Positions 3,706 to 37,977 of a DNA stretch of 64,000 nucleotides are shown here, in pieces (within the stretch, counting starts at the first letter, position 1; each line of letters opens with the position of its first letter). The translations under genes were made by a program, and so were the position numbers. The notes below the pieces were generated by a model, which saw nothing but the letters and a program-made list of their open reading frames with translations, did no database searches and had not been told where the DNA came from. The stretch comes from an uncultured Chloroflexia bacterium (GTDB lineage: Bacteria; Chloroflexota; Limnocylindria; Limnocylindrales; CSP1-4), in contig CAVPRZ010000009.1 in assembly GCA_963708065.1 (NCBI GenBank), positions 28,702 to 92,701 of the forward strand. Reading direction: 5' to 3'.

Positions 3706-4212
3706 ATGACGATCGAGCGGCAGGCGGCGATGACGACGCTCGAGGAGGGGCACCGGTCGGTCCGGGCGTTGGTCGCTCGGTTGACCACGGCCGAGCTCGA
3801 GCGCCCGGCCACGATCGGCGGCGGCGACTGGTCGGCCCGCGACCTCGTCGGCCACCTCACGGCCTGGGAGGAGCACGCGCTGGCGGCGCTCGACGCCTGG
3901 CGGGTTGGCCGGGGGGCCCCAATCCAGCGGGCGCTCCGTGAGCAGGGTCTGAACGCCGTCAATGCCGCCACGGCCGCCGCCGACCGACGTCGCGCGACCG
4001 GCGACGTCCTCCGCCGCTCGGACGCGATCCACGCCGGCCTGATCGCGGCGCTCCAGGCCATCCCGGACGGGACGTGGCTCGAGCCGCCCACGCGGCGGTC
4101 GCGGAGACCGCTCGGCGAGGTCGTCGGGTCGATCCTCGGCGGGCCCACCGGGCCGTTCAGCCACGCGGCGGCGCACCTGCCCGATCTCGAGCGCTACGTC
4201 CAGGGGCGATGA
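3706..4212 (+). CDS. DinB-like / mycothiol-dependent-enzyme N-terminal domain protein
   Basis: Internal ATG at 3706 of ORF 3646..4212. WSARDLVGHLTAWEEHAL and a C-terminal H-containing helix are typical of DinB-fold four-helix proteins. Confidence 0.6.
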   Translation: MTIERQAAMTTLEEGHRSVRALVARLTTAELERPATIGGGDWSARDLVGHLTAWEEHALAALDAWRVGRGAPIQRALREQGLNAVNAATAAADRRRATGDVLRRSDAIHAGLIAALQAIPDGTWLEPPTRRSRRPLGEVVGSILGGPTGPFSHAAAHLPDLERYVQGR

Positions 4213-4727
4213 CGGCAGCCGGGAGCCGGAGCCGAGGCGCGGAGCGCCAGCTGTGGGCCTGCCCGCGCTGCGGGAAGCGCTTCGTTACGCCGAACATGGC
4301 CCACTCGGAGGGATTTGCCCGGGTCGACTTCTACGGTCAAGACGACTGGGTCTCCACGATCGATCTCCGGGATGAGTCGGAGATCGATGCCGAGCTCATG
4401 AGCCTGCTCCGCGAGGCGCGCGCGGTCGGCGACCAGGAGCACCTGCGGGGACGCAGCCGGGAGGTCTCGAGACAGGCCGCACGATCGGCCGACCCACCCT
4501 GGGCCGGGCCGCTGCGACGCCGAGGCGGGGCGCCGGCGAGTCAGGCCCGACCGACGAGGGTGGCTCCCCAGGCGACGGCCCGATCCTCCTCGCCCGGGAG
4601 GAGCGGCCCCTCGCTGTGCTCGATGAAGAAGCTTTCGCCGGGAACGACCGGCTTGGCACCGTGGCGCTGGAGGCCCTCGGCGATGACGCCGGACGCCGCC
4701 CCGGTCAGCCAGCGCGGCTTGTCGTAG
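4209..4727 (+). pseudogene. DUF5655-like remnant (internally deleted?)
   Basis: ATGA overlap with the upstream DinB gene. WACPRCGKRFVTPNMAHS matches the N-terminal zinc-ribbon-like start of DUF5655 proteins (compare the intact copy at 38966). It jumps directly to the C-terminal ...DLRDESEIDAELMSLLREA motif. The tail overlaps the flavodoxin gene and is probably not coding. Confidence 0.3.
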
Positions 4728-4981
4728 CGCGTGTCGAAGGTCGCAACCTTCGTCCCGGGCAGGTCGGGCAGGCGTGCGAGGAACTCCTTCATCGCCGGGC
4801 TCGCCCCGTGAGCCTGGGTGGGTCCACCGACGATCATGAGGTCGACGGTCCGGTCGATCTCCTCGGTGCCCGTGGTGGCCTCGACCGTCACGTGGTTGGC
4901 CGGGCCGAAGCCGGCCGCGATCGACCGGGCGATCCGCTCCGTGTTGCCGAACTTGCTGTCAAAGACGACGAGAATCTTCAT
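4541..4981 (-). CDS. flavodoxin family protein
   Basis: MKILVVFDSKFGNTERIA... is a typical flavodoxin FMN-loop start; 146 aa. Confidence 0.8.
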   Translation of the reverse strand: MKILVVFDSKFGNTERIARSIAAGFGPANHVTVEATTGTEEIDRTVDLMIVGGPTQAHGASPAMKEFLARLPDLPGTKVATFDTRYDKPRWLTGAASGVIAEGLQRHGAKPVVPGESFFIEHSEGPLLPGEEDRAVAWGATLVGRA

Positions 4982-5079
4982 TGGCGACCTCCCGGAGCAT
5001 CGTGCCGGTCGCGTGGCCGAGCCCGCATCGGCCGGATGGCCCCAAGTCGGCGGCCCGGTCGGCCCCGACGCATGGACGG

Positions 5080-11442: not shown

Positions 11443-12366
11443 TCACTCGGCCGCGGTGATCGGCAGCGCCCGCGGGATGAGCTCGGGAATCCGCTCGAGA
11501 AGGTCCCACAGGGTCGTCGAGAAGGGTGAGGTGGGGCGAGCGCCCGACCGCTCGACTGCGACAATCTGCCGTCGGATGGTGGCGGCTCCGTCGAGCCCGA
11601 CCTCGCGAAGCGAGCCACCCTCAATGGCGTCGGCGATCGCCGTGCCGGGGAGGAGCGCCACGCCGAGCCCGCGTTCGACCATTCGCTTTGCCGCCTCGAT
11701 GTTGTCGACCTCGGTGACCCCGCGAGGGACGACGCCGGCAACTCGGAAGAGGGCATTCGTCAGGTCGTAGTAGCTCGACGTTCGGTCGAACAGGATCAGC
11801 TGTGCGTGCTTGATCTCCGATACGTCGACCGTGCCCGCCACGGCGAACGGGTGGTCCGGACGGGCAACGAGGACGAGCTCGTCCTCATAGAGCGGGCGGC
11901 TGCGGACGCGCACGTCGCGGAGCTGGCGGACGATTCCGAGTTCGACCTCGCCACGAACCACGAGGTCGACGATCTCCTCCGAATGCCCGGTCCTCACGCG
12001 CAGCCGAACGTCAGGGTGTCTCTCCGTGAAGCGGACCAGGATCTCCGGCAGGACGTAGGCGCTGACCGCCGGAGCAACCGCCAGCGCGAGCTCACCGACG
12101 ACGCCGTGTTCGAGTTCGCGGACGAGCGAACCGCCGCTCCGGATCGCCTCGATCGCGCGGTCGGCGTGGGGAAGGAAGGCGCGACCGGCCGGCGTCAGGA
12201 CCATCCCCGTGTGCGTCCGCTGGAAGAGAGCTGCAGCGAGCTCCTCCTCGAGCGCCTGGAGCCGCGCCGTCAGCGCCGGCTGGCTGATCGAAAGGGCATC
12301 CGCTGCGCGCCGCATGTTCCCCAATCGGGCGATCTCGACGAAGCCTTCGATCTGGGCGAGGAGCAT
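11443..12366 (-). CDS. LysR family transcriptional regulator
   Basis: HTH MLLAQIEGFVEIARLGNMRRAADALSISQPALTARLQALEEEL plus a LysR substrate-binding domain. The ATG at 12366 is preferred over the TTG at 12381. Divergent from isocitrate lyase. Confidence 0.85.
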   Translation of the reverse strand: MLLAQIEGFVEIARLGNMRRAADALSISQPALTARLQALEEELAAALFQRTHTGMVLTPAGRAFLPHADRAIEAIRSGGSLVRELEHGVVGELALAVAPAVSAYVLPEILVRFTERHPDVRLRVRTGHSEEIVDLVVRGEVELGIVRQLRDVRVRSRPLYEDELVLVARPDHPFAVAGTVDVSEIKHAQLILFDRTSSYYDLTNALFRVAGVVPRGVTEVDNIEAAKRMVERGLGVALLPGTAIADAIEGGSLREVGLDGAATIRRQIVAVERSGARPTSPFSTTLWDLLERIPELIPRALPITAAE

Positions 12367-12391
12367 CGGCACCGTCTCCAAGAGACTTCAG

Positions 12392-12410
12392 TGATCAGTA
12401 GGATTGATCA
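12392..12410. promoter_or_regulatory. TGATCA-N7-TGATCA dyad in the AT-rich LysR/ICL divergent intergenic region (candidate operator)
   Basis: Seen directly. The flanking ATCATATATTCGAT imperfect palindrome lies in the only conspicuously AT-rich patch of this region. Confidence 0.25.
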
Positions 12411-12481
12411 AACACTATCATATATTCGATTGGACTGATGGACGGGAAGGTCGTAGAGTTGGCCCCCCAACGCGATGAAGG

Positions 12482-12682
12482 GTGTTTCCTATGGAACTCA
12501 ATGTCGACATGCGTCAGCCAGCGCACCAAACGACCGGCTCAGCGGAGCCTTCGCATCCGTGGGTCTTCGGCCCGAACGCGGTCGTCGACAGGCCACGCGT
12601 CACGGCGGGCGGGCTCCCCTACAGCTCCTGGGCCGAGTGCGAGTGCCCCGACGATTGCCCGAGAGACCACGAGAACGAATGA
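12482..12682 (+). CDS. small Cys-rich protein upstream of and overlapping the ICL start (candidate)
   Basis: 66-codon ORF ending ...[17 protein letters not shown]. The third-position G/C of its last ~40 codons is far higher than in the alternative frame. Its TGA (12680-12682) overlaps the ICL ATG (12679-12681). Confidence 0.35.
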
Positions 12683-15030
12683 CACCAGCGCTCAGTCAGA
12701 CCGCGGCGCCGGTGGCTTCGGACGCGGATCCTGCGACGCCGATAGCCGCTGAACGCGTGGGGATCGCGACGGACTCATTCGAAACGCAAGTCGCGGCGGC
12801 CCGCGAGTGGTTCGCAATGCCGCGGTTCGAAGGCATCGTTCGCCTCCATACCGCGCGGGAGGTCGCCGCCCAACAGGGCTCGATCCAGCCGGACTACACC
12901 GTCGCCCGAACAGCGGCGGAAGCGTTCTATGCCCGACTTCGCGAACTGTTCTCCCGGGGCGAGCAGATCACGACCTTCGGCCCGTATTCACCCGGCCAGG
13001 CCGTGGTGATGAAGCGGCTGGGAATCGAAGCGATCTACCTCGGCGGCTGGGCAACCTCTGCGAAGGGGTCGAAGACGGAGGACCCCGGTCCGGATCTTGC
13101 GAGCTACCCGCTCGGCCAGGTCCCCGACGAGGCGGCCGGACTGGTCCGCGCGCTCCTCGCGGCGGACAAGAATCAGCATTTCGCTCGCGCGAACATGGAC
13201 GACGAGCAGCGACGAGCCGCGCCGGAGGTCGACTTCCGCCCGTTCATCATCGCCGACGCCGATACCGGCCATGGCGGCGACGCCCACGTTCGGAATCTCA
13301 TCCGTCGATTCGTCGAGATCGGCGTCCCGGGCTACCACATCGAGGACCAGAAACCGGGCGCCAAGAAATGCGGCCACCAGAGCGGCAAGGTCCTGGTGGC
13401 CCAGGACGAGCAGAACAAGCGGCTCAATGCGGCGCGCCTGCAGCTGGACATCATGCGGGTGCCGGGCATCATCGTCGCCCGGACCGATGCCGAGGCCGCG
13501 ACGTTCCTCGACAACCGCAGCGACGAGCGGGACCAGCCGTTCATCCTCGGGGCGACGAACCCGGACCTGCCGAGCTACCGAGTCGGCTTTCTGGCGATCC
13601 AGAAGTCCCTCCGCGATCTCGGGCTGGACGATATCCGGGGTCACCTCCTGTTCGCGGTGCCCGACGACGACCTGCGGAAGGCCATGGCCTGGCTCGCCCA
13701 GGTCGGGCTGATGTCATTGATCGAGCGGACCGCTCGCGAGGCCGAAGGCGAGGCTCGGGTCGAGAAACTGCTTGACGCAATCGACACCCGGTACGCCGAG
13801 ATCTGGCAGGCGGAAGCGGGCCTCAAGACCTATGGCGAGGCAGTTGCCGACGTCCTGGAACTCCGGATCAGCGAGGGCGAACGGTTCGACCTGACCCTCG
13901 AGGATTGGCACGCGTTCGCCACCGGCGCGTCCTTCTCGGAAGTCCGTGCGAAGGCGGACGCACTCGACGTCCGGGTGACCTGGGATCCCGAGGCGCCGAA
14001 GACCCCGGACGGCTACTACCAGGTCCAGGGCGGGATCGACTACGCGATCGCCAAGTCTCTTGCTGCGGCGCCGTTCGCCGACCTGCTCTGGATGGAGACG
14101 AAGACCGCTGATCTCGAGGACGCACGACGATTCGCGAAGGCGATCCATGCCGAGTACCCGGACAAGATGCTCGCGTACAACCTGTCGCCGTCGTTCAACT
14201 GGGACACCACCGGCCTGGGCGACGACGAGATGCGGCGCTTCCCCGAGGACCTCGGCAAGCTTGGCTTCGTCTTCAACTTCATCACCTACGGAGGCCACCA
14301 GATCGACGGCCTCGCCGCCGAGGAGTTCGCCACGGCGCTTCGAGAAGACGGAATGCTCGCCCTCGCCCGCCTCCAGCGCAAGTTCCGACTGCTCGAATCT
14401 CCCTACCGGACGCCCCAATCCCTCGTCGGTGGAGACCGGCTGGACGCGGCTCTGATGGCCGCTTCCGGGCGGACCGCAGCGACGAAGGCGATGGGCAAGA
14501 GCTCAACCCAACATCAACACCTCGTCCAGACCGAGGTGCCGACGAAGCTGCTCGAGGGATGGCTCGCGGCATGGGCGAACCAGTGGGATCGGCCGGGAAG
14601 GATTCACGTCGAGCTGCGGCCCCACACGGCAGGCTCCGACCTCCTGGAGCTTCGAGTGCTCGACGACTCCGATGCCCTCCTCGCCAACATGATCTTCGCG
14701 AGTATCGCGGACCGTCGGGGCCGGAGCATCCTCTCGATCCGTGATCAGAACACGGCGCCATCGATCCGCCGAAGACGGCTGATGACACTCGTCCAGCTCT
14801 TCCTGATCCATCGCTACCGTGCTGACTCGCTGCACTATCTCACCCCAACCGAGGACAACCGGTTGCAGACGCAGGGGATGCAGGATCTGGGCATCTTCAC
14901 GGTCGTGCGGACCGAGATCGGTCAGATCATCGTCGCGGAGGTCGACCGGGAACGGGTCGGCCAGCTGATCCGGCCCGAAGCCGACTCCCTCGCGGAGCTG
15001 ATCCGGAAGCCGATGCCACAGCCCGCGTAG
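12679..15030 (+). CDS. aceA: isocitrate lyase, long actinobacterial ICL2-type
   Basis: Catalytic [10 protein letters not shown] motif, [20 protein letters not shown]. About 784 aa with an extra C-terminal domain, as in mycobacterial AceAb/ICL2. Confidence 0.9.
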
Positions 15031-24004: not shown

Positions 24005-24505
24005 ATGACCGTCAGCCAACCTTCCCGGCTCGCGCGCCGCCTCGGCGACCGCCTGACCGAGCCGTCCGACACCGTCCGCCGGATCGCGACGTTCGCCGGG
24101 ATCGGCGTCGTCAGCACCGTGGCCTACGTCGTCCTCTACGCCCTCCTCCGGGGCGCCGTCCCGGCCCAGGTGGCGAACGCCGTCGCCCTGGCCGCCACCG
24201 CGGTCGGGAACACGACCGCGAACCGGCGGCTGACGTTCAGCGTCCACGGCCGATCGGGCTTCCTCGCCGACCAGGCGGCCGGTCTGGCCGCCTTCGCGAT
24301 CGCCCTGGCGATCACCTCCGGCTCGATCGGCCTGCTCCAGGCGCTCGTCCCGCGGGCCGGCCTCCGACTCGAGATCGCCGTGATCGTCGCGGCCAACGTC
24401 ATCGCGACCGTCGTCCGTTACCTCGTCCTGCAGTCCTGGATGGACCGTCGCCATCCACCGACCCGACAACGATCCCACGGCGTCCCGGAAGGAGCCCCCC
24501 AGTGA
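24005..24505 (+). CDS. GtrA-family membrane protein
   Basis: RRIATFAGIGVVSTVAYVVLYALL...NTTANRRLTF...VRYLVLQSW; four TM segments. Confidence 0.8.
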   Translation: MTVSQPSRLARRLGDRLTEPSDTVRRIATFAGIGVVSTVAYVVLYALLRGAVPAQVANAVALAATAVGNTTANRRLTFSVHGRSGFLADQAAGLAAFAIALAITSGSIGLLQALVPRAGLRLEIAVIVAANVIATVVRYLVLQSWMDRRHPPTRQRSHGVPEGAPQ

Positions 24506-26488
24506 CCACCGTCGTCAGCCCCCGGCTCGGCCTGCCCGAGACCGGCGAGGACGCCCGGAACCCGCTCGCGCGAGCGATCCTCGGCCCGCTCGACCAGGCC
24601 GCCTGGGTCCGGCCCGCGTTCCTCGGGGTGACCCTCCTCGCGGCCGTCGTCTACCTCTGGGGCCTCACCGTCAGCGGCTACGCCAACACGTACTACTCGG
24701 CTGCGGCGCTGGCCGCGTCCCAGAGCTGGAGCGCCTGGTTCTTTGGCTCGTTCGACGCCGCCAACTTCATCACCGTCGACAAGCCGCCGCTCGGCACGAT
24801 GATCATGGGCCTCTCGGTGCGCCTGTTCGGGCTGAGCTCGTGGAGCATCCTCCTGCCCCAGGCGCTGGCCGGCGTCGCGACCGTCGCGCTCCTGTTCTGG
24901 ACCGTCCGCCGCCAGTTCGGCCCGGTCGCGGCGACGATCGCCGGGGTCGTCATGGCGCTCACCCCGGTCGCCGTCCTGATCTTCCGCTACAACAACCCGG
25001 ACGCGATCCTGACCCTGCTCCTGGTGGCCGGCGCCGCCGCCCTCGTCCGCGCGCTCGAGACCGGCCGGCTGCGCTGGGTGATCCTGGCCGCGGCGTTCGT
25101 CGGCCTCGGCTTCGACGCCAAGTACCTGCAGGCCTATCTCGTGCTCCCGGCGTTCGCGCTGACCTATGCGCTCGCGGCGCCCGGCGGCGTGCGACGCCGG
25201 ATCGCCGGCCTCGTCGTGGCCGCGCTCACCGTCCTCGTGACTTCGCTCTGGTGGGTCGTCATCGTCGAGCTCATCCCGACCGACCTCCGCCCGTACATCG
25301 GCGGGAGCACGACCGACTCGGCCGTCCAGCTCCTCCTCGGCTACGACGGCCTCGGGCGGATCTTCGGGTCGGGGGCCGGCCCGGGCGGTGGCGGGGCGAG
25401 CTTCTCCGGCGCCGTCGGGATCCTGCGCCTGTTCAACGCCGAGTTCGGCGGGCAGATCGCCTGGTTCGTGCCGTTCGCGCTGATTGCCCTCGCCAGCGGG
25501 CTGTGGATCCGCCGCCGGAGCCGGCGGACCGACGCCGGCCTCGCCGGCTACCTGCTGTGGGGCGGCTGGTTCGCCACTCACGCGATCGTGTTCAGCTTCA
25601 TGTCGGGCATCGTCCACACCTACTACGCGGTGGCGCTGGCACCGGCGGTCGCCGCGCTCGTCGGCGCCGGGGCGGTCGACCTGTGGCGGCTCCGCGAGCG
25701 AAGCCGCTTCGGCGGGCTGCTCCTTGCCGGGGCCGTGGTCATCACCGCCTGGCTCGCCTACGAGCTGCTCGACCGAACGCCCGACTTCCTGCCCGGGCTC
25801 GGGATCGGCCTGCTCGTCGTCGGGATCAGCGCCGCGGTCGTCCTCGCACTCCCGATGGCGGCCGCCGGCCGGCGGCCCTCGCTCGCCGCAGGCTGCGCTC
25901 GCAGCGGTCGTCCTGCTGGCCGCTCCCGCGGCCTACGCCGCCGACACGATCGCGTCGGCGCTCGGTGGCGGCGACCCGTCGGCTGGTCCGGCGGTCGCCG
26001 GCGGGCAGGGCGGCCCCGGGTTCGCCGGTGGCGCGGGCTTCACCCCGCCCGGCAACGGCCAGGTCGGCACCGGACCGGGCGCCGACGGCCCGGGTGCGTT
26101 CGGCGGCGGGTTCGGGGGCGGCGGGTCGGTCGACCAGGCCGCGATCGACTACCTCGTCGCCAATCGCGGCGAGGCGACCTGGATCGTCGCCACCCCCGGC
26201 TCGGGCAGCGCCGGCTCGATCGAGCTCGCGACCGGCCAGCCGGTCATGGCCATGGGTGGCTTCACGGGCTCGGACCCCACCCCGACGCTCGCCGAGCTCC
26301 AGGCCTACATCGCGTCCGGCCAGCTCCGGTTCGTCATCCTGAGCGGAGGCGGCAGTGGCGGGCCGGGTGGTGACGGCTCAGGCGTGGCGACCGAGCGGGA
26401 CGCCTGGGTCCAGTCGAGCTGCACCGTCGTCGACCTCGGTTCGAGCTCGAGCGCGACGATCTACGACTGCCAGGGCGCGGTCCACTGA
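24502..26488 (+). pseudogene. glycosyltransferase family 39 (ArnT/PMT-like), frame break near 25875-25890
   Basis: ANTYYSAAALAASQSWSAWFFGSFDAANFITVDKPPLG is typical of actinobacterial GT39. The C-terminal periplasmic part (AAYAADTIASA...GFTGSDPTPTLAELQAYIASGQLRFVIL) continues in the frame of ORF 25484..26488. Confidence 0.85.
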
Positions 26489-28888: not shown

Positions 28889-29575
28889 ATGCGTTTCCTG
28901 TTCAAGGCTCCGGCCATGCCAACGCCGACCGAGGCTCTGCCCGGCCGGCCCGACCCCATCGACATCCCCGAGCGGCACTACGTCAACGACGCCCGCCTCG
29001 CCCCGCCGTGGCCGGACGGGACGCGGACCGCGGTCTTCGGTTTCGGCTGCTTCTGGGGCGCCGAGAAGACGTTCTGGCAGACACCCGGGGTGATCTCGAC
29101 GGCCGTCGGCTACGCCGGCGGGTCGACGCCCAACCCGACCTACGGCGAGGTGTGCAGCGGGAAGACCGGCCACGCCGAGGTCGTGCTCGTCGCCTACGAC
29201 CCGGCGAGGGTCTCGTACGAGGAGCTCCTCCGGGTCTTCTGGGAGGACCACGACCCGACCCAGGGCATGCGCCAGGGCAACGACGTCGGGACCCAGTACC
29301 GCTCGGTCATCCTCGTCGGGAACGAAGCCGAGCGACGGATCGCCGAGGCCTCACGGGCCGCCTACGCGGAGCGCCTCAAGGCCGCCGGCTTCGGCGACGA
29401 TCACGACCGAGATCGTCGACGCCGCGCTCGACGCCGTTCTACTACGCCGAGGACTACCACCAGCAGTACCTGGCGAAGAACCCGAGGCCCGGCTTATTGT
29501 CCTGACCACGCGACCGGCGTGAAGTTGCCGGACGACTTCGCCATTCCGGTCACGCCGTTGCAGTACGTCGACTGA
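28889..29575 (+). pseudogene. msrA: peptide-methionine (S)-S-oxide reductase MsrA; three frame breaks in the last 200 nt (net zero)
   Basis: [14 protein letters not shown] active site, [36 protein letters not shown]. The segments [25 protein letters not shown] and [12 protein letters not shown] lie in three successive frames. Confidence 0.85.
29479..29575 (+). repeat. R0: msrA 3' end in place (..[34 protein letters not shown])
   Basis: Read directly. It has two extra codons relative to the other copies. Confidence 0.9.
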
Positions 29576-29697
29576 GCCCGACGCTTCGACGTCACGTCCT
29601 GATAGGAACCGACTCCGACGCAGGGGCCGCTGACATCACGGACTCACCGGGTGATGCCCTTGCGACCTCGGGTGCCTCAGGGCACTATCCCGTTGAG

Positions 29698-29982
29698 ATG
29701 GGACCGTTACGAAGCAGATGGGCGCGGGGGGCCGTGCTCTGGACGCTCGCCCTGTTGGTCGTCGCAATCGGGCTTGCCATCTTTGCGTCCGCGAGTCTCG
29801 TTGACGCTCAGCAGAGGTGCTTCGTCGAATTCCCGTCCGTCGCCTGCCCTGACGGACAGGATTGGCGGGTGGGGCTCCTGACCTTCGCGTTCCTCGGCGT
29901 TCCCCTCGTCTGGGTCGTCGGACTGGTCGTGGCCATCGCCGGTCGCGCTGCCTCGAAGCGGCGGCCGGAGCGCCGCCGGTAG
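29698..29982 (+). CDS. cassette 1 cargo: small two-TM membrane protein (94 aa)
   Basis: AVLWTLALLVVAIGLAIFA and LLTFAFLGVPLVWVVGLVVAIAG flank a Cys-containing loop. The basic tail ends 31 nt before R1. Confidence 0.5.
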   Translation: MGPLRSRWARGAVLWTLALLVVAIGLAIFASASLVDAQQRCFVEFPSVACPDGQDWRVGLLTFAFLGVPLVWVVGLVVAIAGRAASKRRPERRR

Positions 29983-30013
29983 TCTCGGGCAGTACGCTGA
30001 CTCGTATCTTCGA

Positions 30014-30109
30014 GAGAACCGAGGCCCGGGAGCGTATTGCCCGGACCACTCGACCGGCGTGAAGCTGCCGGATGACTTCGTGGTCACCCCACTGCAGTAC
30101 GTCGACTGA
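30014..30109 (+). repeat. R1: msrA 3'-end copy ([34 protein letters not shown])
   Basis: Direct alignment to R0; differences are mostly at third codon positions. Confidence 0.9.
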
Positions 30110-30225
30110 CTACGGGCCCGAGCTAGAATTCGCGTGCGCTCCTGCAGAAGCGGAAGCCGACGTGCGGCCACATGGGCTTCATGCCCACCACCGCCGGGTT
30201 CGGCCGGACCGCGAGGTCACGACGG

Positions 30226-30900
30226 TTACTGGCGCCGGAGCACGATGGCTACGCGGGTCCCCGACATGACACATCGCGCAGGTAGCTCCGGCGCAACCGG
30301 GCAGGCGTGGGCATTGCCACCAGGGTGCGTCGCGAGGAAACGAGTCAGCGACCGCGGGCTGGTCATGGCCGTCGGCCTCTGCTCATTCTCGCTGGGCGGC
30401 TGCACGCGGTCCGAGCGCACGTAGTTGAGGAACACGTGGTCCCGGAGCTTCCGGGCAAGGAGCGCGTTCTCATCGTCTCCGATGGCCGCGAACACGGTCT
30501 CCAAGATGTAGGCGTACATCGAGGTCGCGATGGCCTCGATGTCCTCGGGATGCCACGGGCTCTTGTCGCCTACCCACTCCCACTCGCTCGGGCCGATCTC
30601 ATCGGCGGTCGCCTTGAAGCTCGACGCATCTGTGTGCTCCCACGGGCTGAAGGTCTTGTAGGCGTACACGTAGGCGTCGTTCATCACGATCTTGTGGCCG
30701 GGGTACTTGGTGATGACCTCGTTCGCCATACGTCGGAGGTTCGGGAGGATGCGGTCCTTGCCGTAGTTCTTCCCCAGCTCCTTCAGCTTCGCGAACGCGG
30801 CGTCACGGGTGGCCTCCTTGATGGGGGTCGGGTCCTTGGGGTCAACCGGGATGGACGAGCCACGGTCCTTCGCGTGTTCGCGGATGTCGACACCCGGCAG
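30226..30900 (-). pseudogene. cassette 2 cargo: 5'-truncated gene of unknown function
   Basis: The frame is open, with coding-like third positions, from 30945 downward. There is no ATG/GTG/TTG before the internal Met at 30729. The coding-like sequence starts abruptly at the edge of repeat A1. Confidence 0.45.
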
Positions 30901-30903
30901 CCG

Positions 30904-31026
30904 CGGAGACCGTCCCGTCGGTCGCCTTCCGATGGGTCTGCTGATTTAGACTCCCGGCGGGCTACTCTCCTGACCGCCGGATGGGCAGGGCTCCGCCGTC
31001 CGTTCGCATGGTCGTCACGAGCAGCA
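30904..31026 (+). repeat. A1: about 120-nt imperfect direct repeat, copy 1
   Basis: Shares with A2 CGGAGACCGTCCC, CTCCCGGCGGGCTACT and a 34-nt identical block CCGCCGGATGGGCAGGGCTCCGCCGTCCGTTCGC. Contains the small dyad CCGGCGG..CCGCCGG. Confidence 0.8.
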
Positions 31027-31126
31027 GCCTCATCACGCGACTCGCGTGCCGTACGTTGAGCACTCTGACGGCCAATCGTCGCCGCCGGATGCGCAGGATG
31101 GACGCCTCCCCGGACCCCGGTCAGCC

Positions 31127-31244
31127 CGGAGACCGTCCCATCGCCTCCGCCTTCCGATTCGGTGCAATTCAACTCCCGGCGGGCTACTTCCCGCCGCCGG
31201 ATGGGCAGGGCTCCGCCGTCCGTTCGCTGGTCGTACGACGCAGC
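31127..31244 (+). repeat. A2: about 120-nt imperfect direct repeat, copy 2 (offset 220-224 nt from A1)
   Basis: As for A1. Confidence 0.8.
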
Positions 31245-31601
31245 GTGCCGGCTCGCGAAGTCGGCTGAGTCGAGGTAACGCCGGACGGTCATTTCGATGG
31301 CCTCGACTGGTTCGTCCGCATTGCGTCTCAGGTCTTCGTAGTACTCAAACCCCTCAGGCGTTACATCGAAGAGTCGGTCACCGCTTCGGTTGTAGTGGAG
31401 ATTGACGAGGCCGTAGCGCGCGAGCATGTCCACGTCTGAGGCGAGGATGCGTGGCTGAACGGAGCTGTGGGGGTGCATCAGGAAGTCGCCCGCGCTTGTC
31501 TCAACCACGAGGAAGCTGTCGCGCTCCTCTCTCGGCAGGCCGCGTATCGCCTCAACGGCGGTGACGAGGAGGCCCTCCTGCGCTTGTTCGAGTCGAGCCA
31601 T
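31245..31601 (-). CDS. cassette 2 cargo: hypothetical protein (3' end uncertain)
   Basis: ATG at 31601 (MARLEQAQEGLLVTAVEAIRGLPREERDSFLVVETSAGDF...). The ORF stays open through A2 and A1 down to 30783, but beyond about 31245 it becomes low-complexity, so the real stop is unclear. Confidence 0.4.
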
Positions 31602-31708
31602 TAGGAAAGAATAGGGGTGAGCCCGGTCACAAAGAACGCGACGACGTCTGTCGGGTAGCGGTTGGTCTTGCCGAGGTCGTTGTGAACGAGCAATACCCTG
31701 ACCTGTCT

Positions 31709-31796
31709 GAGAATCCCGGGCTACTGCCCGAACCACGCGACCGGCGTGAAGTTGCCGGACGACTTCGTGGTCACACCTTTGCAGTACGTGGACTAA
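31709..31796 (+). repeat. R2: msrA 3'-end copy (..[29 protein letters not shown])
   Basis: Direct alignment; TAA stop. Confidence 0.9.
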
Positions 31797-31982
31797 GCGT
31801 CCCTACTTGATCAGCGCTGGATCTCGCGAGGCTCCTCGAAGAGTTCCGTCGACGTCGGCCCTTCCGAACTTACGAGCGCACCGATGAGTCAGACGGCAAG
31901 TCACCAGCCGCCGAGACTACCGGATCAGGGTGCGCGTCCGCGGCCGGCGAGGGAGACGAGGTCGCCTACCCGTCATCGAGGA

Positions 31983-32915
31983 CTACGTGCCGAAGACGAG
32001 CGTCCCGCCCTCCCCGAGCCTCAGCGTCAGCTGGCCGCCCTCGATCGCGTAGCTCGATGCGTTGCCGAGCCCGACGACGTAGAGATCGCCCATCGAGCCG
32101 GGCGGGCAGGCGGCCAGCGTCGACGGTCCGGGCAGGATCGAGATCGACCCGCCTCCCGGTTCGAGGCCTATATCCGTGCGACCATCGCCGCGGTGTACCT
32201 CGTACGTCCCGCTGACCTGGTTGCAGTCGGCCTTTGCGTTGAACGTCCCGTCCGCCTGGAACTCGATCGTGTATTTCGACTGGTCCGCCTCGGGGACCAC
32301 GCCCTGGAACGCCGGCGTCGTCTCCGTGATCCCGGTCAGCTTCCACGTCTTGCCGAGCAGCTCGGCGGGCGGGCTCGCGCCCGGGGCCAAGGACGCCTCG
32401 GCGCTCGACTGGGCGCTCGACGGAACGGCCTGCAGCGGGCCGAACGTCATCGTGCCGCCGTCGGTCAGCGCGATCGTCAGCGTGTCGTTCGTCACCGCGT
32501 ACGTGGCGGCCTCGGTCAGCGAGTGGGCGAAGATCGATCCGAAGTCGCTGTCGGGACAGAACGCGAGCGTCGGCGCACCCGCGGTGATCGTCAGACCGTT
32601 TCCGCTCGTCTTGTAGGTCCCGGCGATCTGGTTGCAGGCGGCGGTGCCCGAGTACGTGCCGTCCGTGTTGATCGTGATCGTGTAGTCCGGCTGTTGGTAG
32701 GCCGGGACCACGCCCTGGAACGCCGGCGTCTTGCTGGTCACCGCGGTCAGGGCCCACGGCTTGCCGGTCAGGGTCGGTCCGCTCTGCTTGTCGGCGCTTG
32801 CTCCGCTGGCAGCGGGCGCCGACGCGGTCGTCGCTCCGGACGATCCGGCGCCGCAGGCGGTGAGGAGCGTCGCGGCAATCGCGAGGGCGATGCCGAACGG
32901 TGCGGTGAGTTTCAT
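31983..32915 (-). CDS. cassette 3 cargo: lipoprotein with two META (HslJ-like) domains
   Basis: MKLTAPFGIALAIAATLLTAC lipobox with AAGGGGGA 7 nt upstream. Two units of the form W.LT....P.FQGVVP......YTI.F..DGT..G.A.CN...GTY.... Confidence 0.8.
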   Translation of the reverse strand: MKLTAPFGIALAIAATLLTACGAGSSGATTASAPAASGASADKQSGPTLTGKPWALTAVTSKTPAFQGVVPAYQQPDYTITINTDGTYSGTAACNQIAGTYKTSGNGLTITAGAPTLAFCPDSDFGSIFAHSLTEAATYAVTNDTLTIALTDGGTMTFGPLQAVPSSAQSSAEASLAPGASPPAELLGKTWKLTGITETTPAFQGVVPEADQSKYTIEFQADGTFNAKADCNQVSGTYEVHRGDGRTDIGLEPGGGSISILPGPSTLAACPPGSMGDLYVVGLGNASSYAIEGGQLTLRLGEGGTLVFGT

Positions 32916-33107
32916 GCGGGACGTCCCCCTTGGCGGGTGGCGTTGTCGGTCGAGCCGACCGGGTCGGCGAACGCTGCCGATTGTCTGGGCGCCCGCCACG
33001 GCGCGCGATGGTGCCACTGCTCTAGCTGAGAATCCACTCTGAGCCCTCAAATCGCGTGCATGGATACGAGCATATATGGCCCACTCGAACGGCAGCCTGA
33101 CTTGCCT

Positions 33108-33197
33108 GAGAATCCCCGGGGCTACTGTCCGAACCACGCGACCGGCGTGAAGCTGCCAGATGACTTCGTGGTCACGCCGCTCCAGTACGTCGACTAG
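33108..33197 (+). repeat. R3: msrA 3'-end copy ([32 protein letters not shown])
   Basis: Direct alignment; TAG stop. Confidence 0.9.
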
Positions 33198-33277
33198 TCC
33201 TGCCCGCCCGAAGACGATGAGACCCTCCCGACGCCGGGAGGGTCTCTGTCATTCGGTCGAACGTTGGGGAACAAGGG

Positions 33278-34111
33278 TTGGACCAGGAATCGTTGCGCCG
33301 CGACATATGCTGGGATGAGATGACCGCGGCCCCGGATCCCGGACCAGACAACGAGGAGTTCTGGCGCAACTTCCTCACGCGTGGCGATGCGATGGAGCGC
33401 AAGGTCAGGCGTGTCTTCAAGCGCATCCCCCAGGGGCCGCGCTGCAAGTTGTGCGCGGCACCCTTCGCCGGCGTCGGTGCGCCACTCATGCGCATGATCG
33501 GGAAACGGCCCTCCGACAAGAATCCGACCATGTGCAATTCCTGCTTCGCCTTCATGGTTCGACACCACGGCGGTGCTGAGATCGAATGCAGCTTCCTGTT
33601 CGCTGACGTGCGCGGCTCGACCACCATCGCCGAGGGCATGTCCGCGACCGACTTCCGCAGCCTATTGGACCGTTTCTACTCGACGGCGTCTGCAGTCGTT
33701 TTCGATCACGACGGCAGCGTAGACAAGTTCGTTGGCGACGAGCTCGTGGCGATGTTCTTTCCGCTCCTTAGTGGTGAGCAGCATGCAGCGCGCACGGTGG
33801 AAGCCGCCCAGGCCCTGCTGGTGGCCACAGGACACGCCGATCCGGGTGGGCCGTGGCTGCCACTCGGCGCGGGGGTGCATACCGGTCCCGCGTGGGTCGG
33901 AACGGTGGGTGACAGGGCGCACGTCGAGCTGACCGCGCTGGGCGACACCGTCAATACGACGGCCCGGCTCGCATCGGTCGCCAAGGTCGGCGAGATCCTG
34001 GTCACTAAAGCCGCTGCCGATGCTGCTGGCCTAGATCCCGCGCTCGAACACCGATCTCTCGAGCTCAAGGGCAAGGAATTCCCCACACAGGTCGTTGTCG
34101 TCCGAACTTGA
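33278..34111 (+). CDS. cassette 4 cargo: class III adenylate/guanylate cyclase with N-terminal Cys4 zinc-ribbon-like segment
   Basis: CKLCAAPF...CNSCFAF, then ECSFLFADVRGST...KFVGDELVAMF...GVHTGPAWVG...LGDTVNTTARL. TTG at 33278; alternative ATG at 33320. Confidence 0.8.
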   Translation: MDQESLRRDICWDEMTAAPDPGPDNEEFWRNFLTRGDAMERKVRRVFKRIPQGPRCKLCAAPFAGVGAPLMRMIGKRPSDKNPTMCNSCFAFMVRHHGGAEIECSFLFADVRGSTTIAEGMSATDFRSLLDRFYSTASAVVFDHDGSVDKFVGDELVAMFFPLLSGEQHAARTVEAAQALLVATGHADPGGPWLPLGAGVHTGPAWVGTVGDRAHVELTALGDTVNTTARLASVAKVGEILVTKAAADAAGLDPALEHRSLELKGKEFPTQVVVVRT

Positions 34112-34185
34112 TATGACCGAGAGTGCGGGCGAGCCATACGAAAGCAGCTCTGCTAGCCCCAAGGCTGGCCATAATCTGACGCGCT

Positions 34186-34275
34186 GAGATTCCCCGGGGG
34201 TACTGCCCGGACCATCGGACCGGCGTGAAGCTGCCCGATGACTTCGTGGTCACGCCGCTCCAGTACGTGGACTGA
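34186..34275 (+). repeat. R4: msrA 3'-end copy ([32 protein letters not shown])
   Basis: Direct alignment. Confidence 0.9.
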
Positions 34276-34322
34276 ACCAACACCGCTCAACCGTGAGCCG
34301 GCCGGCCGGTTGACCGACTACG

Positions 34323-34943
34323 ATGCCGGGAGGAGGGCGTGAGATAACCGACCCGATCGCGGACATCATCGGCGACTACCGAGCGTTCGCGGCCCAGCAG
34401 CGCGACCGGTTGCTGGCGCGTGGCATCGACATCGCCCTGTACGCGCTCAGCCACCTCGCATACCGGGTGCCCGAGTGGGACCAGTACGTCCAGGTCCGGA
34501 CGCTCCTCGAGCGCCACGCGACCTCGAATCGGGAGAACGTCTGGAACGGCCGCCCGATCTCCTTGATCGTTCCCGCCAAGCCGCTCGAAGTCCTGGAAGG
34601 CCAGGTCGTCCCGCTCATCGAGCTCATCCCGCCCGTCCACCAGCGCGTCTACAAGATGGGGCTGGAGCACCTCGGCGTCGTGGTCGGCGACACGTTCGAC
34701 ACGTTCGTCGGAGCCCACAAGCCCGTCCTGACGGGCCAGCAGTTCCAAGGCCCGAACAGCACACCCGACCCTGTCTACATCCTGTTCGAGGACTTCACCC
34801 ACGTGAAGTTCTATCGACTGTCACTGCAGGCATCCGTCGAGATCGATGGTGGCCGGTTCGAGGACGGGTTCCACCACGTCGACGACTGGGTGCCCCAGCG
34901 GCTGGTCACGGCGACCGGCCCCAACCCCCTTCCCCGGGACTGA
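34323..34943 (+). CDS. cassette 5 cargo: VOC-fold, YecM-like metalloprotein
   Basis: LSHLAYRV, GLEHLGVVVGD and THVKFY are spaced as in YecM/VOC proteins. The assignment is from memory of the family, not a search. Confidence 0.55.
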   Translation: MPGGGREITDPIADIIGDYRAFAAQQRDRLLARGIDIALYALSHLAYRVPEWDQYVQVRTLLERHATSNRENVWNGRPISLIVPAKPLEVLEGQVVPLIELIPPVHQRVYKMGLEHLGVVVGDTFDTFVGAHKPVLTGQQFQGPNSTPDPVYILFEDFTHVKFYRLSLQASVEIDGGRFEDGFHHVDDWVPQRLVTATGPNPLPRD

Positions 34944-34978
34944 CGTGGCCGGGTGACCGACGCGACAGTAGTCTCGCG

Positions 34979-35074
34979 GAGAACACAGGCCCGGGAGCGT
35001 ATTGCCCGAACCACGCGACCGGCGTGAAGTTGCCGGATGACTTCGCGGTCACGCCGCTGCAGTACGTGGACTGA
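34979..35074 (+). repeat. R5: msrA 3'-end copy ([34 protein letters not shown])
   Basis: Direct alignment. It is the distal-most copy, so under an integration model it is the candidate ancestral 3' end. Confidence 0.9.
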
Positions 35075-35255
35075 CGCCTATCGGCGGGGTCCTGATCGCT
35101 GTCGCGCTGCTCAGCCAGCTGGCATAGCCGACCGGGCTTCGTCGGACCGTTCATGACACTCGATCCGTTTGACGGGCCGACCCCGCGGCGCCTAGGCTCA
35201 GGTCACGGGCGCTGCGCCGCATGCGCCAGGTTGCCCGAGGGATGGAGGGCTCGCA

Positions 35256-35513
35256 ATGATTCGGCGGATCACCGGGATCATCCTTGGAGTGGTGGCCTTC
35301 TTGATCGTGTACTGGCTCTCTGGCGGGACGGCGACACCGGCCACGCCGAACTGGGCACTGGCGATCCTCGTCGGGCTGGTGGTGGCGCTCATCTGGCCGT
35401 GGATCATGGGCCTGATCGTGGTCAGGCGCACTCGGCAGCGCCGCCAGAACGAGATCGACCAGGAGGTCCAGAAGCAGCTCGCGCAGCAGCAGAACAACCC
35501 ACCACCCTCCTGA
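35256..35513 (+). CDS. small two-TM membrane protein (85 aa)
   Basis: ITGIILGVVAFLIVYWL and ALAILVGLVVALIWPWIMGLIVV, followed by a basic/Gln-rich tail. Confidence 0.5.
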   Translation: MIRRITGIILGVVAFLIVYWLSGGTATPATPNWALAILVGLVVALIWPWIMGLIVVRRTRQRRQNEIDQEVQKQLAQQQNNPPPS

Positions 35514-35862
35514 TCCCCGGGCCAGGCGCGCCGCACAGCAGCCCCACCTGGCGGTCGAAGGTCGGCGCGTCGAACGGCTCGCGGTCGAGCGGCGAGGGCG
35601 CGAACGAGATGCCCCAGAAGTCGGTCGAGCCGACCCCCGGGTACCGGCCGATGATGTCGAGGTCGGTCTGGGTCGCGAGCTCCGAGCCCAGCCGGACGCG
35701 CCTCGCGACCGGGAGGTATCGCGGCACGTAGCGGGCGAGCTTCTCGACCGCCTCGTCCTCCGTCTTGCCGCCCCGTTCGAGACCCGGCCAGTCCGCCGCG
35801 ACGGCGACCCAGCGCTTGCCGCGCGTGGGCTGTTCGATGAGCACGCGAAGCCGGGACGTCAT
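35422..35862 (-). pseudogene. hypothetical protein, probably 3'-truncated or frameshifted
   Basis: The N-terminal 100 aa look protein-like (MTSRLRVLIEQPTRGKRWVAVAADWPGLERGGKTEDEAVEKLARYVPRY...). The last 45 aa are low-complexity and overlap the opposite-strand TM ORF. Confidence 0.35.
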
Positions 35863-35868
35863 CCCGCG

Positions 35869-36687
35869 TCACGCCCCGGTCGAGTCGCGCTCCCACGCGC
35901 GCCCGAGGACCCACAGCGCGATGTTCAGGGCGAGCACCCAGATGAAGAGCACGCTCAGGGCGATGGCGGCAAGCAGCAGGATCGAGCGGATGCTGTCGAC
36001 CGTGCTGTCGGCCTTGGCCTGCAGAGCGGCGAGGCTGGCCGACAGGCCGCGGACCGCCGTGGCACCGCCCGAGATCGCGTCCTTCACCGGGGTCGCGCGG
36101 CCCGCGAGGGCCTCCGCAACGGCGGCGCCCGGCTGGGCGTCCGCGAGGCTCGTCCACGTCGAGACGATCGCGTCGTCGATCGCCTGGATCTTGGCGTCAA
36201 CGGCGGCCAGCGTATCTCCCGCACCTTCAGGGACCCTTGTTCCGGGAATGATCCGGGCGATCTGCTGGAGCGTCGACATGACGCCGACCACGTTCTCGCG
36301 GGCCTCGGCGTAGCTGACGCGCGCCTCGAGATACCGGTCCGAGATCTGCCCCAGGCGGGCCTGCAGGTTCGACAGCCGGGCCAGGTCGGGGGTGCTGCTG
36401 GCAGCCAGCGCGGCGGCGTCCGCCCGCATCGTGTCGATCGCGGCGACGGCCTCGTCGAGCCGGCCCGCAACCGCATCGGTCGCCGTGATGGCCCGGCCGA
36501 ACCCGCTGTTGACGTCGTTGCCGAGGTCGTCCACGGCCCGGGAGACGGTCCCGAGCCCGAACCACACGGCGACGATGATCAGGGCGCAGATGACGACGCC
36601 GATGATGCCTGCGACCTTGGCCGCGACGGCCTTCCGCGGCGCGCGCTGGGAGGTGACGGGCCTGAACATCGGCGAGGTCTCGGACAT
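35869..36687 (-). CDS. membrane protein with N- and C-terminal TM segments and long Ala-rich helical ectodomain
   Basis: Internal ATG at 36687 of the 702-aa composite ORF. Contains VAGIIGVVICALIIVAVWFGLG and LLLAAIALSVLFIWVLALNIALWVLG. Confidence 0.6.
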   Translation of the reverse strand: MSETSPMFRPVTSQRAPRKAVAAKVAGIIGVVICALIIVAVWFGLGTVSRAVDDLGNDVNSGFGRAITATDAVAGRLDEAVAAIDTMRADAAALAASSTPDLARLSNLQARLGQISDRYLEARVSYAEARENVVGVMSTLQQIARIIPGTRVPEGAGDTLAAVDAKIQAIDDAIVSTWTSLADAQPGAAVAEALAGRATPVKDAISGGATAVRGLSASLAALQAKADSTVDSIRSILLLAAIALSVLFIWVLALNIALWVLGRAWERDSTGA

Positions 36688-36809
36688 GGGACGGTCTCGG
36701 ATGGGAGTTGGTGGGGCGATGATGACAGGTCCGGGCAATCGTCCGGCCCAGGCTGTCAGGCCCCGGGAGAGCAGCCTCCCGGGGCCTTGTTGACGCCCCC
36801 AGTCGGACG

Positions 36810-37977
36810 CTACTTGCGGCTGTTGTAGCTCGCGAGCCCTTGCCAATCGCCCCGAACCGCGTACGACGCCTGGGTCGGCCATGTATCGAGGCTCGAGGGT
36901 GGCAGCGCCCCGCCCTGCGCGATGATCTTGCGCAGATCCGAGGGATCGGTGTGCTCGAGCTCGGCGTAGGTCGTCACGCCGCCGTCGGACAGGATCGAGG
37001 AGATCCGTGGCCCGATCCCGTTGAGCTGGGTCAGGTCGTCGGGCGCCGCGGCCTTGGCCGCCTTCGACTTGCGTCGCGCCGCGGTGGCTCGGCTCGGAGC
37101 CTCGCTTGTTGTACTTCATCAGGCCCTGCCAGTCGCCCTTCGCGGCATAGGTCGCCTGCATCGGCCACGACGCCACATTGGCGGGCGGCACCATGTCCGC
37201 CTCGTGCAGCGCATGCCTGAGTTGCGGCTCGTTGGCCTCGGCCAGCGCCGCATAGGTCGTGATCCCCGCCGTCGCCAGCGCGTCGCTGGCCTTGGGCCCG
37301 ACGCCGGAGAGCTGGGTCAGGTCGTCGGCGGTCGCGGCTGGCGCCGCAACCGCAGCGGGCGCCGCCGCCGCGGCCGGCGTGGCAGCCTCAGCCGGCGCCT
37401 CCTCGGGAACTTCCACCTCGTAGTCCGACACGACCTCGGCGCCGCCGAGCTGCTCCACCGCCGGGTCGACGAGCGCCTTCAGCGCGGCTGCCTTCTCAGG
37501 GGGCAGCGTGCTCGAGATCAGGAGGGCCTTATCGGTCGTGAGGGCCTGCTCGATCATCCCGATGGATCCGGCCCAGTTGCCTTCATACAGGATGAAGAGG
37601 GCGCTCTTCCCCTTGTCGAGCTCCTTCGTGACCTGCCGCATGAACTTGTCGTCGATCCCGATGTCGTGCATGCGGTTTCGCAGCCCATTCAGGACGCCAC
37701 CCGCGGCGCCGCCGACGACCGCACCGGCCGGCCCGAGGACGATCGCGCCGACGATGACACCGAGCCCGGCGCCACGGGCGGCGCCCTTCGCGCCGCCGAG
37801 ATCCGCGGTCTGATGAACCTTGACCCGGAACCTGGTCCGGTCGGCGATCGCCGCATCGACGATCTTGACGTTGGGGTCGACCTCGTCGATCTCCTGGATC
37901 CGCTTCAGGAGTCGCCTCGACTGCTTGCCCGTGTCCAGCACGAACGCGGCAAGGGTCTGACCGTACTCGTCGCTCAT
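36810..37977 (-). pseudogene. DUF1269-like membrane protein fused to two helix-hairpin-helix repeats, frame break near 37090-37100
   Basis: Gly-zipper GAARGAGLGVIVGAIVLGPAGAVVGGAAGG. Repeat 1 is DDLTQLSGVGPKASDALATAGITTYAALA...WPMQATYAAKGDWQGL. Repeat 2 (DDLTQLNGIGPRISSILSDGGVTTYAELE...WPTQASYAVRGDWQGL) is in another frame and ends at TAG 36810-36812. Confidence 0.7.

Follow-up and report, generated by a model that had tools for sequence, protein, structure and literature searches.

Integron-like cassette arrays at the 3′ end of msrA in a soil lineage of Chloroflexota

Gene-end accretion and cassette arrays in described systems

Mobile elements accrete at the 3′ ends of housekeeping genes in several bacteria, as do ICESt1, ICESt3 and the integrase-less cis-mobilizable elements (CIMEs) at fda in Streptococcus thermophilus and the staphylococcal cassette chromosome (SCC) and pseudo-SCC elements at the last codons of rlmH/orfX in staphylococci, and integron attC sites also form clusters lacking an integrase (CALINs). 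The present study analyzes an arrangement behind msrA, the gene for peptide methionine sulfoxide reductase A, in a 64,000-nucleotide stretch of DNA from an uncultured Chloroflexia bacterium (contig CAVPRZ010000009.1, positions 28,702 to 92,701; hereafter the window, meaning the whole stretch, with positions counted from its first letter), where the 3′ end of the gene is present six times (R0 to R5), together with 131 related loci. We consider it about 90% probable that the six copies are junction sites of a tandem cassette array built by recombination at the msrA 3′ end; this integron-like arrangement is common in one soil lineage of Chloroflexota. Literature searches on msrA as an integration site or on cassette arrays in Chloroflexota returned nothing relevant, and as a larger feature the msrA-end cassette array appears to be undescribed.

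As in CIME and SCC accretion, direct repeats contain the end of the target gene, a replacement end brought by the element keeps the gene intact, several units stand in a row, and there are members without a recombinase of their own, which in those systems are thought to be moved in trans. Direct repeats bearing the target-gene end, with the gene restored by sequence that the element brought, were found at the six window sites and at 83 downstream sites in relatives. In the msrA arrays, unlike those systems, no element in about 130 loci bears a recombinase; a unit holds one or two genes and, at a median of 0.6 kb, is much smaller; a long segment of 31–33 codons is replaced; and arrays of 7 or more units occur and characterize a whole class-level lineage. 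With integron arrays and CALINs the msrA array shares small one-gene cassettes that each end in a recombination site with no adjacent integrase needed, insertion beside a fixed resident site with the newest cassette apparently proximal, co-oriented sites, and a cargo of small enzymes (VOC/glyoxalase, cupin, SnoaL), membrane proteins and unknowns. It differs from integrons in that the site mimics the coding sequence of the target gene and has no attC-like fold (z about −0.6) and in that cargo lies on either strand. Because there is neither an intI at the resident site nor a folded attC, the msrA array is not an integron; the search for intI adjoining the resident site was a motif and reading test with no full profile scan, and neither the window nor the 131 loci yielded a tyrosine-recombinase motif pair.

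In Prochlorococcus, tycheposon arrays at tRNA genes grow by successive integrations that push older elements inward and leave partial target copies behind, the elements being several kb long, directed to tRNA or tmRNA targets and equipped with tyrosine or large serine recombinases and often replication genes (bioRxiv 10.1101/2020.12.28.424599). The msrA arrays resemble them in successive integration at one site, target remnants through the island, niche-adaptive cargo and the concentration of flexible genes, and differ in that the target is a coding end kept in frame and the units carry cargo only.

Copies of the msrA end in the window and in relatives

The last 24–26 codons of msrA, from Y-C-P to the stop, occur six times between 29495 and 35074, all on the plus strand: in place with two extra codons as R0 (29495–29575), and behind it as R1 (30035–30109), R2 (31722–31796), R3 (33123–33197, situated in a 45-aa open reading frame (ORF) beginning with ATG), R4 (34201–34275) and R5 (35000–35074). 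A sequence-only reading of the window had described the copies as diverging like independently evolving coding ends, and a codon-level check agrees with it. All three stop codons are used (TGA in R0, R1, R4 and R5, TAA in R2 and TAG in R3), and over 24 aligned sense codons the 17 variable columns are spread unevenly, with 4, 2 and 11 at positions 1, 2 and 3 (binomial P=0.008); synonymous CTG/TTG replacements make up two of the four differences at first positions. Pairwise differences summed over R0–R5 fall as 35/13/84 by codon position, the Nei–Gojobori pS is 0.387 and pN 0.042 (ratio 0.11), and the amino-acid changes are the N/D, A/S/R and V/A already named in that reading. Overall the tails differ from one another at 8–20% of positions in a codon-structured manner. 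In-place ends of 113 relatives show the same substitution pattern and all three stops (TGA 74, TAG 23, TAA 7 across the lineage), consistent with tails that evolved as translated msrA ends.

The proposal that a 12-nt block is invariant and a candidate crossover core fared less well. The block ACCGGCGTGAAG is identical in six of six window copies, and at no more than one mismatch it has 9 matches in the window against 0.57 expected, but in copies outside the search-pattern selection its third positions are conserved only at 0.78–0.96, varying about as much as those of other codons, and a specially constrained core was therefore rejected.

Both an assembler artefact and a recent local duplication had been doubted from the sequence, and rightly so. 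Contigs assembled from the short reads of an independent public run match the window at 29537–30109, 33161–34268, 34239–35172 and 35143–35700 with 0–2 differences and thus reproduce several copies, from which it follows that R1, R4 and R5 are distinct sequences that polishing would not merge. Tail identity is 0.849 within an array and 0.856 between genomes, and each window tail has its nearest relative elsewhere, at 0.93–0.99 identity, as against 0.88–0.92 within its own array.

Relatives were collected by an exact-pattern scan with one genome per species, which gave 66 loci, nearly all of them in Chloroflexota metagenome-assembled genomes labelled Ca. Limnocylindrales or Chloroflexia, and by a metagenome scan that gave 65 more. 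A profile built from the six window copies then yielded 196 full-length, well-scoring copies in the 131 loci and the window, 113 in place and 83 downstream. In loci with a recognizable msrA body, 192 of 193 matches were co-oriented and all arrays lay 3′ of msrA, whose upstream neighbors vary from locus to locus (peptidase, beta-lactamase-like, kinase). Among the 49 loci in which an in-place copy is followed by 3 kb or more of sequence, 59% had one or more additional copies within 3 kb, and the median cassette interval was 635 bp. Loci L032 and L039 had up to seven copies per 8-kb tile, with seven sites in 6 kb in L039 (oriented 1833–7925), and many truncated site copies with arbitrary end points were also present. 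In L111 (4712–5271) a VOC-family gene with a full cassette-type site behind it lies midway along a 10-kb contig, with no msrA body within 5 kb upstream and no other site detected, so that this site lies either deep in a decayed island or at another chromosomal location.

The downstream copies are in a different state from those in place. Their ratio of nonsynonymous to synonymous changes is 0.77 in 83 tails, compared with 0.37 in the 113 in-place ends (P=2e-8), changes at second positions are about three times as many as in place, and frames are intact in 60% as opposed to 81% (P=0.001), the other 40% of downstream tails being broken by indels or without a stop. Third-position differences still dominate, and the downstream tails appear relaxed but young. 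Relaxed and non-homogenized tails are therefore former or foreign working msrA ends that are out of service and slowly decaying. Two earlier claims have to be narrowed. That each copy had been selected as a functional MsrA C-terminus is upheld for the past and not for the present, in view of the ratios just given, and an origin in different donors does not apply to every copy, the right half of R2 and its flank being the lineage's own former msrA end.

Site anatomy, junctions and a proposed mechanism

Each cassette carries a site of about 115 bp, composed of a non-coding left arm, a variable loop and then the stretch from Y-C-P to the stop. In-place copies always run upstream into native msrA (…YHQQYL[DA]KNP.GYCP…), with a cassette-type left arm in 0 of 113, whereas downstream copies always have the cassette-type arm, with the consensus CCGGCAGTA(C/G)GCTGACCTGTCTGAGAA, in which conservation starts abruptly at CCGGCAGTA. 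This arm aligns to native CAGCAGTACCTCGAC------AAGAA with six extra bases and is derived from the msrA codons Q-Q-Y..K-N, 6 bp longer. Many cassette-type arms hold an in-frame TAG (CAGTAGGCTGAC) and their variation is not of synonymous type; they are only about 68% identical to their own consensus, and the best-kept positions (GCA.TA, GAC, AGAA) are exactly those common with native msrA. The earlier interpretation was largely right yet described one facet of a larger feature and missed its central aspect, namely that the copies are attachment sites in a cassette array with a non-coding left arm of their own.

From the K-N codons on, both kinds of copy have a loop and then the tail, which in cassette sites form an in-frame replacement of the last 31–33 msrA codons and resemble native msrA ends from many lineages, and loop types occur both in place and downstream. 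The standard loop x-P-x-G was found 78 times in place and 37 times downstream, the VPNG loop 20 and 12 times, a two-codon-longer loop N-R/T-G-P-G-A, which includes R0, R1 and R5, 3–5 and 10 times (intact in place in the short-read contigs L068 and L122), and a second two-codon-longer loop, K-S-D-G-S-G, once and 5 times. The two sequence types that had been noticed upstream of the window tails do exist, with GAGAAC..AGGCCCGGGAGCG in R1 and R5 and a degenerate version in R0, as opposed to CTGAC-N-CTGAGA(A/T)TCCC(C)GGGG(C) in R2, R3 and R4; rather than subfamilies they represent two loop lengths, long in R0, R1 and R5 and standard in R2, R3 and R4, and the CTGAC...CTGAGA motif is part of the cassette-type left arm. 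In L039 the in-place copy and four downstream copies have the same rare long loop GAAGTCAGA(C/T)GGGTCAGGG behind different left arms, perhaps because the resident loop and tail were reused locally or because copies were converted by one another. From the way in which arms and loops are distributed, exchange took place repeatedly, it seems, within a few bases between left arm and loop, around (A/G)AGAA.

A dyad lies across this point. The inverted repeats CA(G)TA and TAYTG each stand 10 bp from the AA of AAGAAC in 98 of 113 native sites, cassette sites have a spacing of N16 on the left and N10 on the right, and the central dinucleotide is GT instead of AA in VPNG-type sites; the Q-Y and Y-C codons account in part for the outer motif. 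An attC-like fold and covariation were both considered and rejected, the site being conserved in sequence with no excess folding energy: z-scores with DNA parameters on the two strands were −0.59/−0.66 for 60 downstream sites and −0.50/−0.60 for 40 native ends, and CA(G/A)TA positions showed no covariation with TA(C/T)TG positions (Fisher P=0.44). Large serine integrases use dyad sites of 40 bp in the host and 50 bp in the mobile partner, with one central dinucleotide common to both, and the outer motif is nearer the center in host attB than in attP, with a 5-bp shift in LI/A118 (PMC3783163). The msrA sites are similar in having a host site of about 40 bp and a mobile site of 46–52 bp, an outer motif at N10 in the one and N16 in the other, and a putative exchange at a central dinucleotide, and dissimilar in that the shift is 6 bp rather than 5, the central dinucleotide is AA or GT, and in-place sites of occupied arrays break the attL/attR rule, for which last reason the likeness is only a lead.

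The order of insertion may be read from the closest relative, L070, in which msrA is directly followed by the third cassette of the window. The L070 tail is nearly identical to the left part of R0, with its rare TATTGTCCTG, joined to the right part of R2 and the R2 flank, and because L070 carries it in place, the right half of R2 with its flank is the lineage's own displaced msrA end. Relative to L070, the segment from the right part of R0 through cassette 1, R1 and cassette 2 to the left part of R2 is thus an insertion beside msrA or, conversely, a deletion in L070. This one comparison supports the view that the newest cassettes adjoin msrA. The junction falls within 34 nt on which R0 and R2 agree completely (model positions 48–81) and which include the 12-mer, so that one mapped junction is compatible with the coincidence of 12-mer and breakpoint that had been put forward for testing; others lie elsewhere. 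The L071/L073 junction is at about model position 88–92 (5 differences in the last 25 nt at a 1.7% background, P=6e-5), those of L067/L127 and L023/L038 are immediately 3′ of the stop, and L031 is a mosaic whose in-place copy matches the first downstream one exactly over 50 nt of loop and tail, beyond which the two differ.

The mechanism that we propose would have the resident msrA end and a cassette site exchange DNA just 5′ of the loop, at (A/G)AGAA of the K-N codons, through a recombinase encoded elsewhere in the genome that would recognize the dyad CA(G)TA-N10/16-AA-N10/16-TAYTG. The incoming cassette's tail would complete msrA and so come under purifying selection, and the previous tail would move downstream past the new cargo and become joined to the left arm that the cassette brought; replacement of the tail at each insertion would thereby give tails that are coding-like, differ in stops and synonymous sites and decay slowly downstream. 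Homologous recombination between the conserved tails, about 75 nt long, would delete and reshuffle cassettes and produce scattered junctions, mosaics and truncated copies. For this full account, with a dedicated trans-acting site-specific recombinase and an exchange point 5′ of the loop, we see the odds as slightly favorable. Tentative, and a possibility that we would not bet on, is the further idea of a gene-capture system like the integron but otherwise built, in which the resident site is the coding 3′ end of msrA, the cassette consists of a 46–52 bp double-stranded dyad site with an in-frame spare tail, and a recombinase located elsewhere, possibly of the serine family, inserts and excises single-gene cassettes and gives msrA a new C-terminus at each capture.

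A serious rival, albeit in our estimation an unlikely one, is exchange by homology only with no dedicated enzyme: a donor array of msrA, tail, cargo and tail would enter by transformation or similar, RecA-type crossovers would take place in msrA or the tails, unequal recombination would add and remove cassettes, and the left arm would be the relic of one founding duplication. This would fit the lack of a recombinase in the 131 loci and the window, junction positions that vary within the site, mosaic tails and the many truncated copies with arbitrary ends, and identical blocks of 30–45 nt in the tails, such as the 34 nt shared by R0 and R2, are long enough for exchange. It would leave unexplained, however, the first duplication and the presence of a bounded site on each of hundreds of one-gene cassettes, and frequent homologous exchange should homogenize tails within arrays, which is not seen. 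Nor does the left arm look like a decaying relic, since it keeps just the blocks shared with native msrA while the rest has drifted to about 68% of consensus, a pattern resembling selection, and one left-arm family is joined to every native loop type within no more than 8 nt, where homology is poor on the left as against 75 nt on the right. It is this joining, the conservation of only those left-arm blocks that are common with native msrA, and the compact, sharply bounded units that lead us to favor a site-specific recombinase.

Rare loop variants common to in-place and downstream copies in L031 (50 identical nt with rare GGG and ATC), L039 (the same +6 loop, four downstream) and L050 could instead suggest transposon-like staggered cuts about 45–90 bp apart in the msrA end, with the resident loop and tail duplicated as a long target-site duplication, but we regard this as improbable because in-place and first downstream copies are on average 87% identical compared with 86% for random pairs, the window tails differ mutually by 8–20% and match other genomes better, and the downstream left arm is not a copy of the native one. 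That the repeated tails function where they stand, as short translated ORFs or as transcription or translation signals for neighboring cargo, seems more improbable again: the ATG-started ORF around R3 and the hairpin after some tails would be in its favor, whereas a start codon is missing from most downstream copies, the left arm of many is interrupted by an in-frame TAG, 40% of tails are indel-broken or stopless, cargo lies on either strand relative to the tail, and there is neither an Rfam match nor excess folding energy. Least credible, and already refuted, is local tandem duplication of the msrA end or an artefact of a repeat-rich long-read contig, to which the single-base indel errors of the window might have pointed; independent short-read contigs reproduce R1, R4 and R5 with their flanks at 0–2 differences, the copies differ in a codon-structured way at 8–20% of positions, and the same architecture recurs in dozens of independent assemblies.

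Several observations weigh against the proposed enzyme-driven account. Junctions are at scattered positions, and a single fixed crossover fails without extra homologous events. Neither an excision circle nor an empty-site polymorphism was shown in the assembled contigs that form the evidence base, and the joints seen there are otherwise explained, by related msrA genes and by graph branches that repeats induce: those leading from 29485 to R2, R4 and R5, considered as evidence of excision, were rejected as related msrA genes with ordinary tails mapped to the best copy, with a short side of 31–48 nt. Most occupied arrays keep a symmetric attB-like in-place site, unlike the strict attP × attB rule of large serine integrases. 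No recombinase was found by Pfam in cassette and flanking ORFs at about 28.8–38 kb, by reading GC3-filtered translations, with no full profile scan, in the rest of the window, or by motif regex and reading of 144 ORF clusters, again with no full profile scans, among the array-side ORFs of the 131 loci. The regex, directed at boxes I and II of tyrosine recombinases and at the N-terminus of serine recombinases, had three matches that were all antisense artefacts, and the serine-recombinase N-terminal motif was thus found by this regex in neither the window nor the 131 loci; the sole transposase, identified by eye, was an IS256-like gene (oriented 12106–13440) directly after the in-place tail in L131. 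Searches of IMG/VR (for exact pattern matches) and of phage and plasmid collections found no free or element-borne site, the left-arm match in L133 being a chance one inside a terminase-like gene with no tail after it.

If the account given here holds, a Chloroflexota lineage that is abundant in soil and fresh water and has hardly been cultured would concentrate much of its flexible gene content in an array whose attachment site doubles as the spare end of a stress-protection gene, and this would be a second, structurally unrelated answer to the integron problem, i.e. ordered single-gene capture at one chromosomal site. Tail and left arm together would be a simple sequence tag with which to harvest the mobile cassettes of this lineage from metagenomes, and a defined pair of 40 bp and 46–52 bp sites with a predicted recombinase could interest those in search of site-specific recombination tools. 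For annotation, the arrays explain the msrA-like fragments that litter these genomes and the short-read assemblies that break just behind msrA.

Cassettes and cargo

The msrA gene of the window (28889–29575, plus strand) matches Pfam PMSR (PF01625) at E=3e-49 over profile positions 1–116 of 153, and its assembled frame is broken at about 29399–29494. In comparison with L070, to which the msrA body is 93% identical at the DNA level, a G is added near 29399 and a second near 29427 and the loop at 29483–29494 is aberrant, which together put about 95 nt out of frame and would reflect either long-read errors, which are likely, or a pseudogene. Relative to short-read contigs the window has one inserted nucleotide at each of 28684, 28793 and 28887, and from such single-base insertions the window looks like an unpolished long-read assembly, for which reason frameshifts here should not be read as pseudogenes before polishing and single-base frame arguments on R0 and R2 should not be pressed. 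Three overlapping ORFs at 24502–26488 make up a membrane glycosyltransferase-like gene, the family being read from translation only, and suggest indel breakage.

Five cassettes of 0.4–1.6 kb, with one or two genes each, alternate with the sites, all of which are on the plus strand. The in-place site R0 (29462–29576, nhmmer 94 bits) combines the native left arm (YHQQYLAKN) with a loop similar to the long one of R1, a two-codon-longer tail and a TGA stop; the part with TATTGTCCTG is common to L070 and the right half is not. Cassette 1 (29577–30000, plus strand) encodes a 94-aa membrane protein (ORF 29698–29982) with no Pfam match, and its homologue in L012 is also the first cassette between two sites. 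The second site, R1 (30001–30110, 104 bits), has a cassette-type left arm, a long loop (ENRGPGA) and TGA, and a contig covers 29537–30109 with 0 differences. Cassette 2 (30111–31688, minus strand) has two ORFs (30226–30729/30945 and 31260–31604) with no Pfam matches, and contains twice a GC-rich unit of about 120 nt (30893–31007 and 31116–31227) in copies 220 nt apart and 85% identical. One run X1 contig joins 30109 to 31097, skipping 30110–31096, and another runs back from 31227 to 31009, so this region of cassette 2 is structurally polymorphic. The unit has no Rfam match, and it is present once in L029 (4584–4704, 91% identity) as almost the sole content of the first cassette there.

Next come R2 (31689–31797, 104 bits), with a cassette-type left arm, a standard loop and TAA, and cassette 3 (31798–33088, minus strand), which encodes a lipoprotein with an internal duplication (ORF 31983–32916; signal peptide and lipobox read from translation) and is 98% identical in DNA to the copy in L070. 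The site R3 (33089–33198, 106 bits) has a cassette-type left arm, a standard loop (ENPRG, in frame) and TAG, and is followed by cassette 4 (33199–34168, plus strand; short-read contig 33161–34268) with an adenylate/guanylate cyclase-domain protein (ORF 33278–34111, Pfam Guanylate_cyc E=6e-13). Behind R4 (34169–34277, 100 bits, in short-read contigs), which has a cassette-type left arm, a standard loop (EIPRG) and TGA, cassette 5 (34278–34968, plus strand) carries a YecM-like protein (ORF 34323–34943, Pfam YecM E=2e-15), and R5 (34969–35075, 103 bits; contig 34239–35172, 2 differences) has a cassette-type left arm, a long loop (ENTGPGA) and TGA. Terminator-like GC-rich inverted repeats stand right after the stops of several tails and before the cargo, in the window at 33205–33250 and 34278–34320 and in yecM-cassette leaders of L031, L043, L052 and L062, and they vary in sequence among copies of one cargo family; Rfam had no match over 28.5–36 kb.

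Beyond R5 the segment 35154–37977 has no recognizable sites and holds an 85-aa membrane protein (35256–35513, plus strand), a truncated 146-aa ORF (35422–35862, minus strand) and a DUF1269/HhH protein (35869–37977, minus strand). These genes are 94–97% identical in DNA to loci whose msrA is 77–87% identical, and in L039 the 85-aa gene forms a cassette with a site behind it, which together indicate that the island continues beyond R5 with its sites lost. The truncated ORF belongs to a 229-aa family that is common in these islands, and its homology begins only at 35532, directly after the end of the 85-aa-protein cassette, at the point where a site stands in L039; it seems that a site and the 3′ portion of this gene were both lost in a deletion near 35532 (35524–35540).

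Cargo and msrA differ in their degree of relatedness between the same genomes. The yecM gene is 95–97% identical in DNA between the window and loci whose msrA body is 71–77% identical, the 94-aa gene of cassette 1 and its L012 homologue agree at 88% with msrA at 78%, and overall cargo reaches 88–97% where msrA is 71–79% identical, consistent with cargo genes moving between divergent genomes. Cargo families also recur at different array positions, YecM in 16 loci (a search for contigs encoding it returned one 934-nt contig only) and, among others, VOC/glyoxalase, RibD_C, DUF2652, SnoaL, cupin, Zn-dehydrogenase, TMEM175-like and small membrane proteins. In the well-sampled yecM and 92-aa c15 families, cargo shows linkage to the left arm of the site that follows it; linkage of yecM to the upstream tail was not clear, the flanks being too diverged. 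Cargo is found on either strand, as with the minus-strand cassettes 2 and 3 of the window.

Some relatives hold cargo of other kinds. A 4.3-kb insert between two msrA-tail sites in L109 (443–4497) has, from translations only, an HTH/ImmA-like metallopeptidase, a 256-aa gene and an S1-type peptidase, and is possibly a larger cargo of defense or toxin-antitoxin type. Resistance-like genes were recognized by eye in the msrA islands of three relatives, namely a chloramphenicol-acetyltransferase-like gene in L057, a Tet(M)/EF-G-like GTPase in L077 and an aminoglycoside-phosphotransferase-like kinase in L048.

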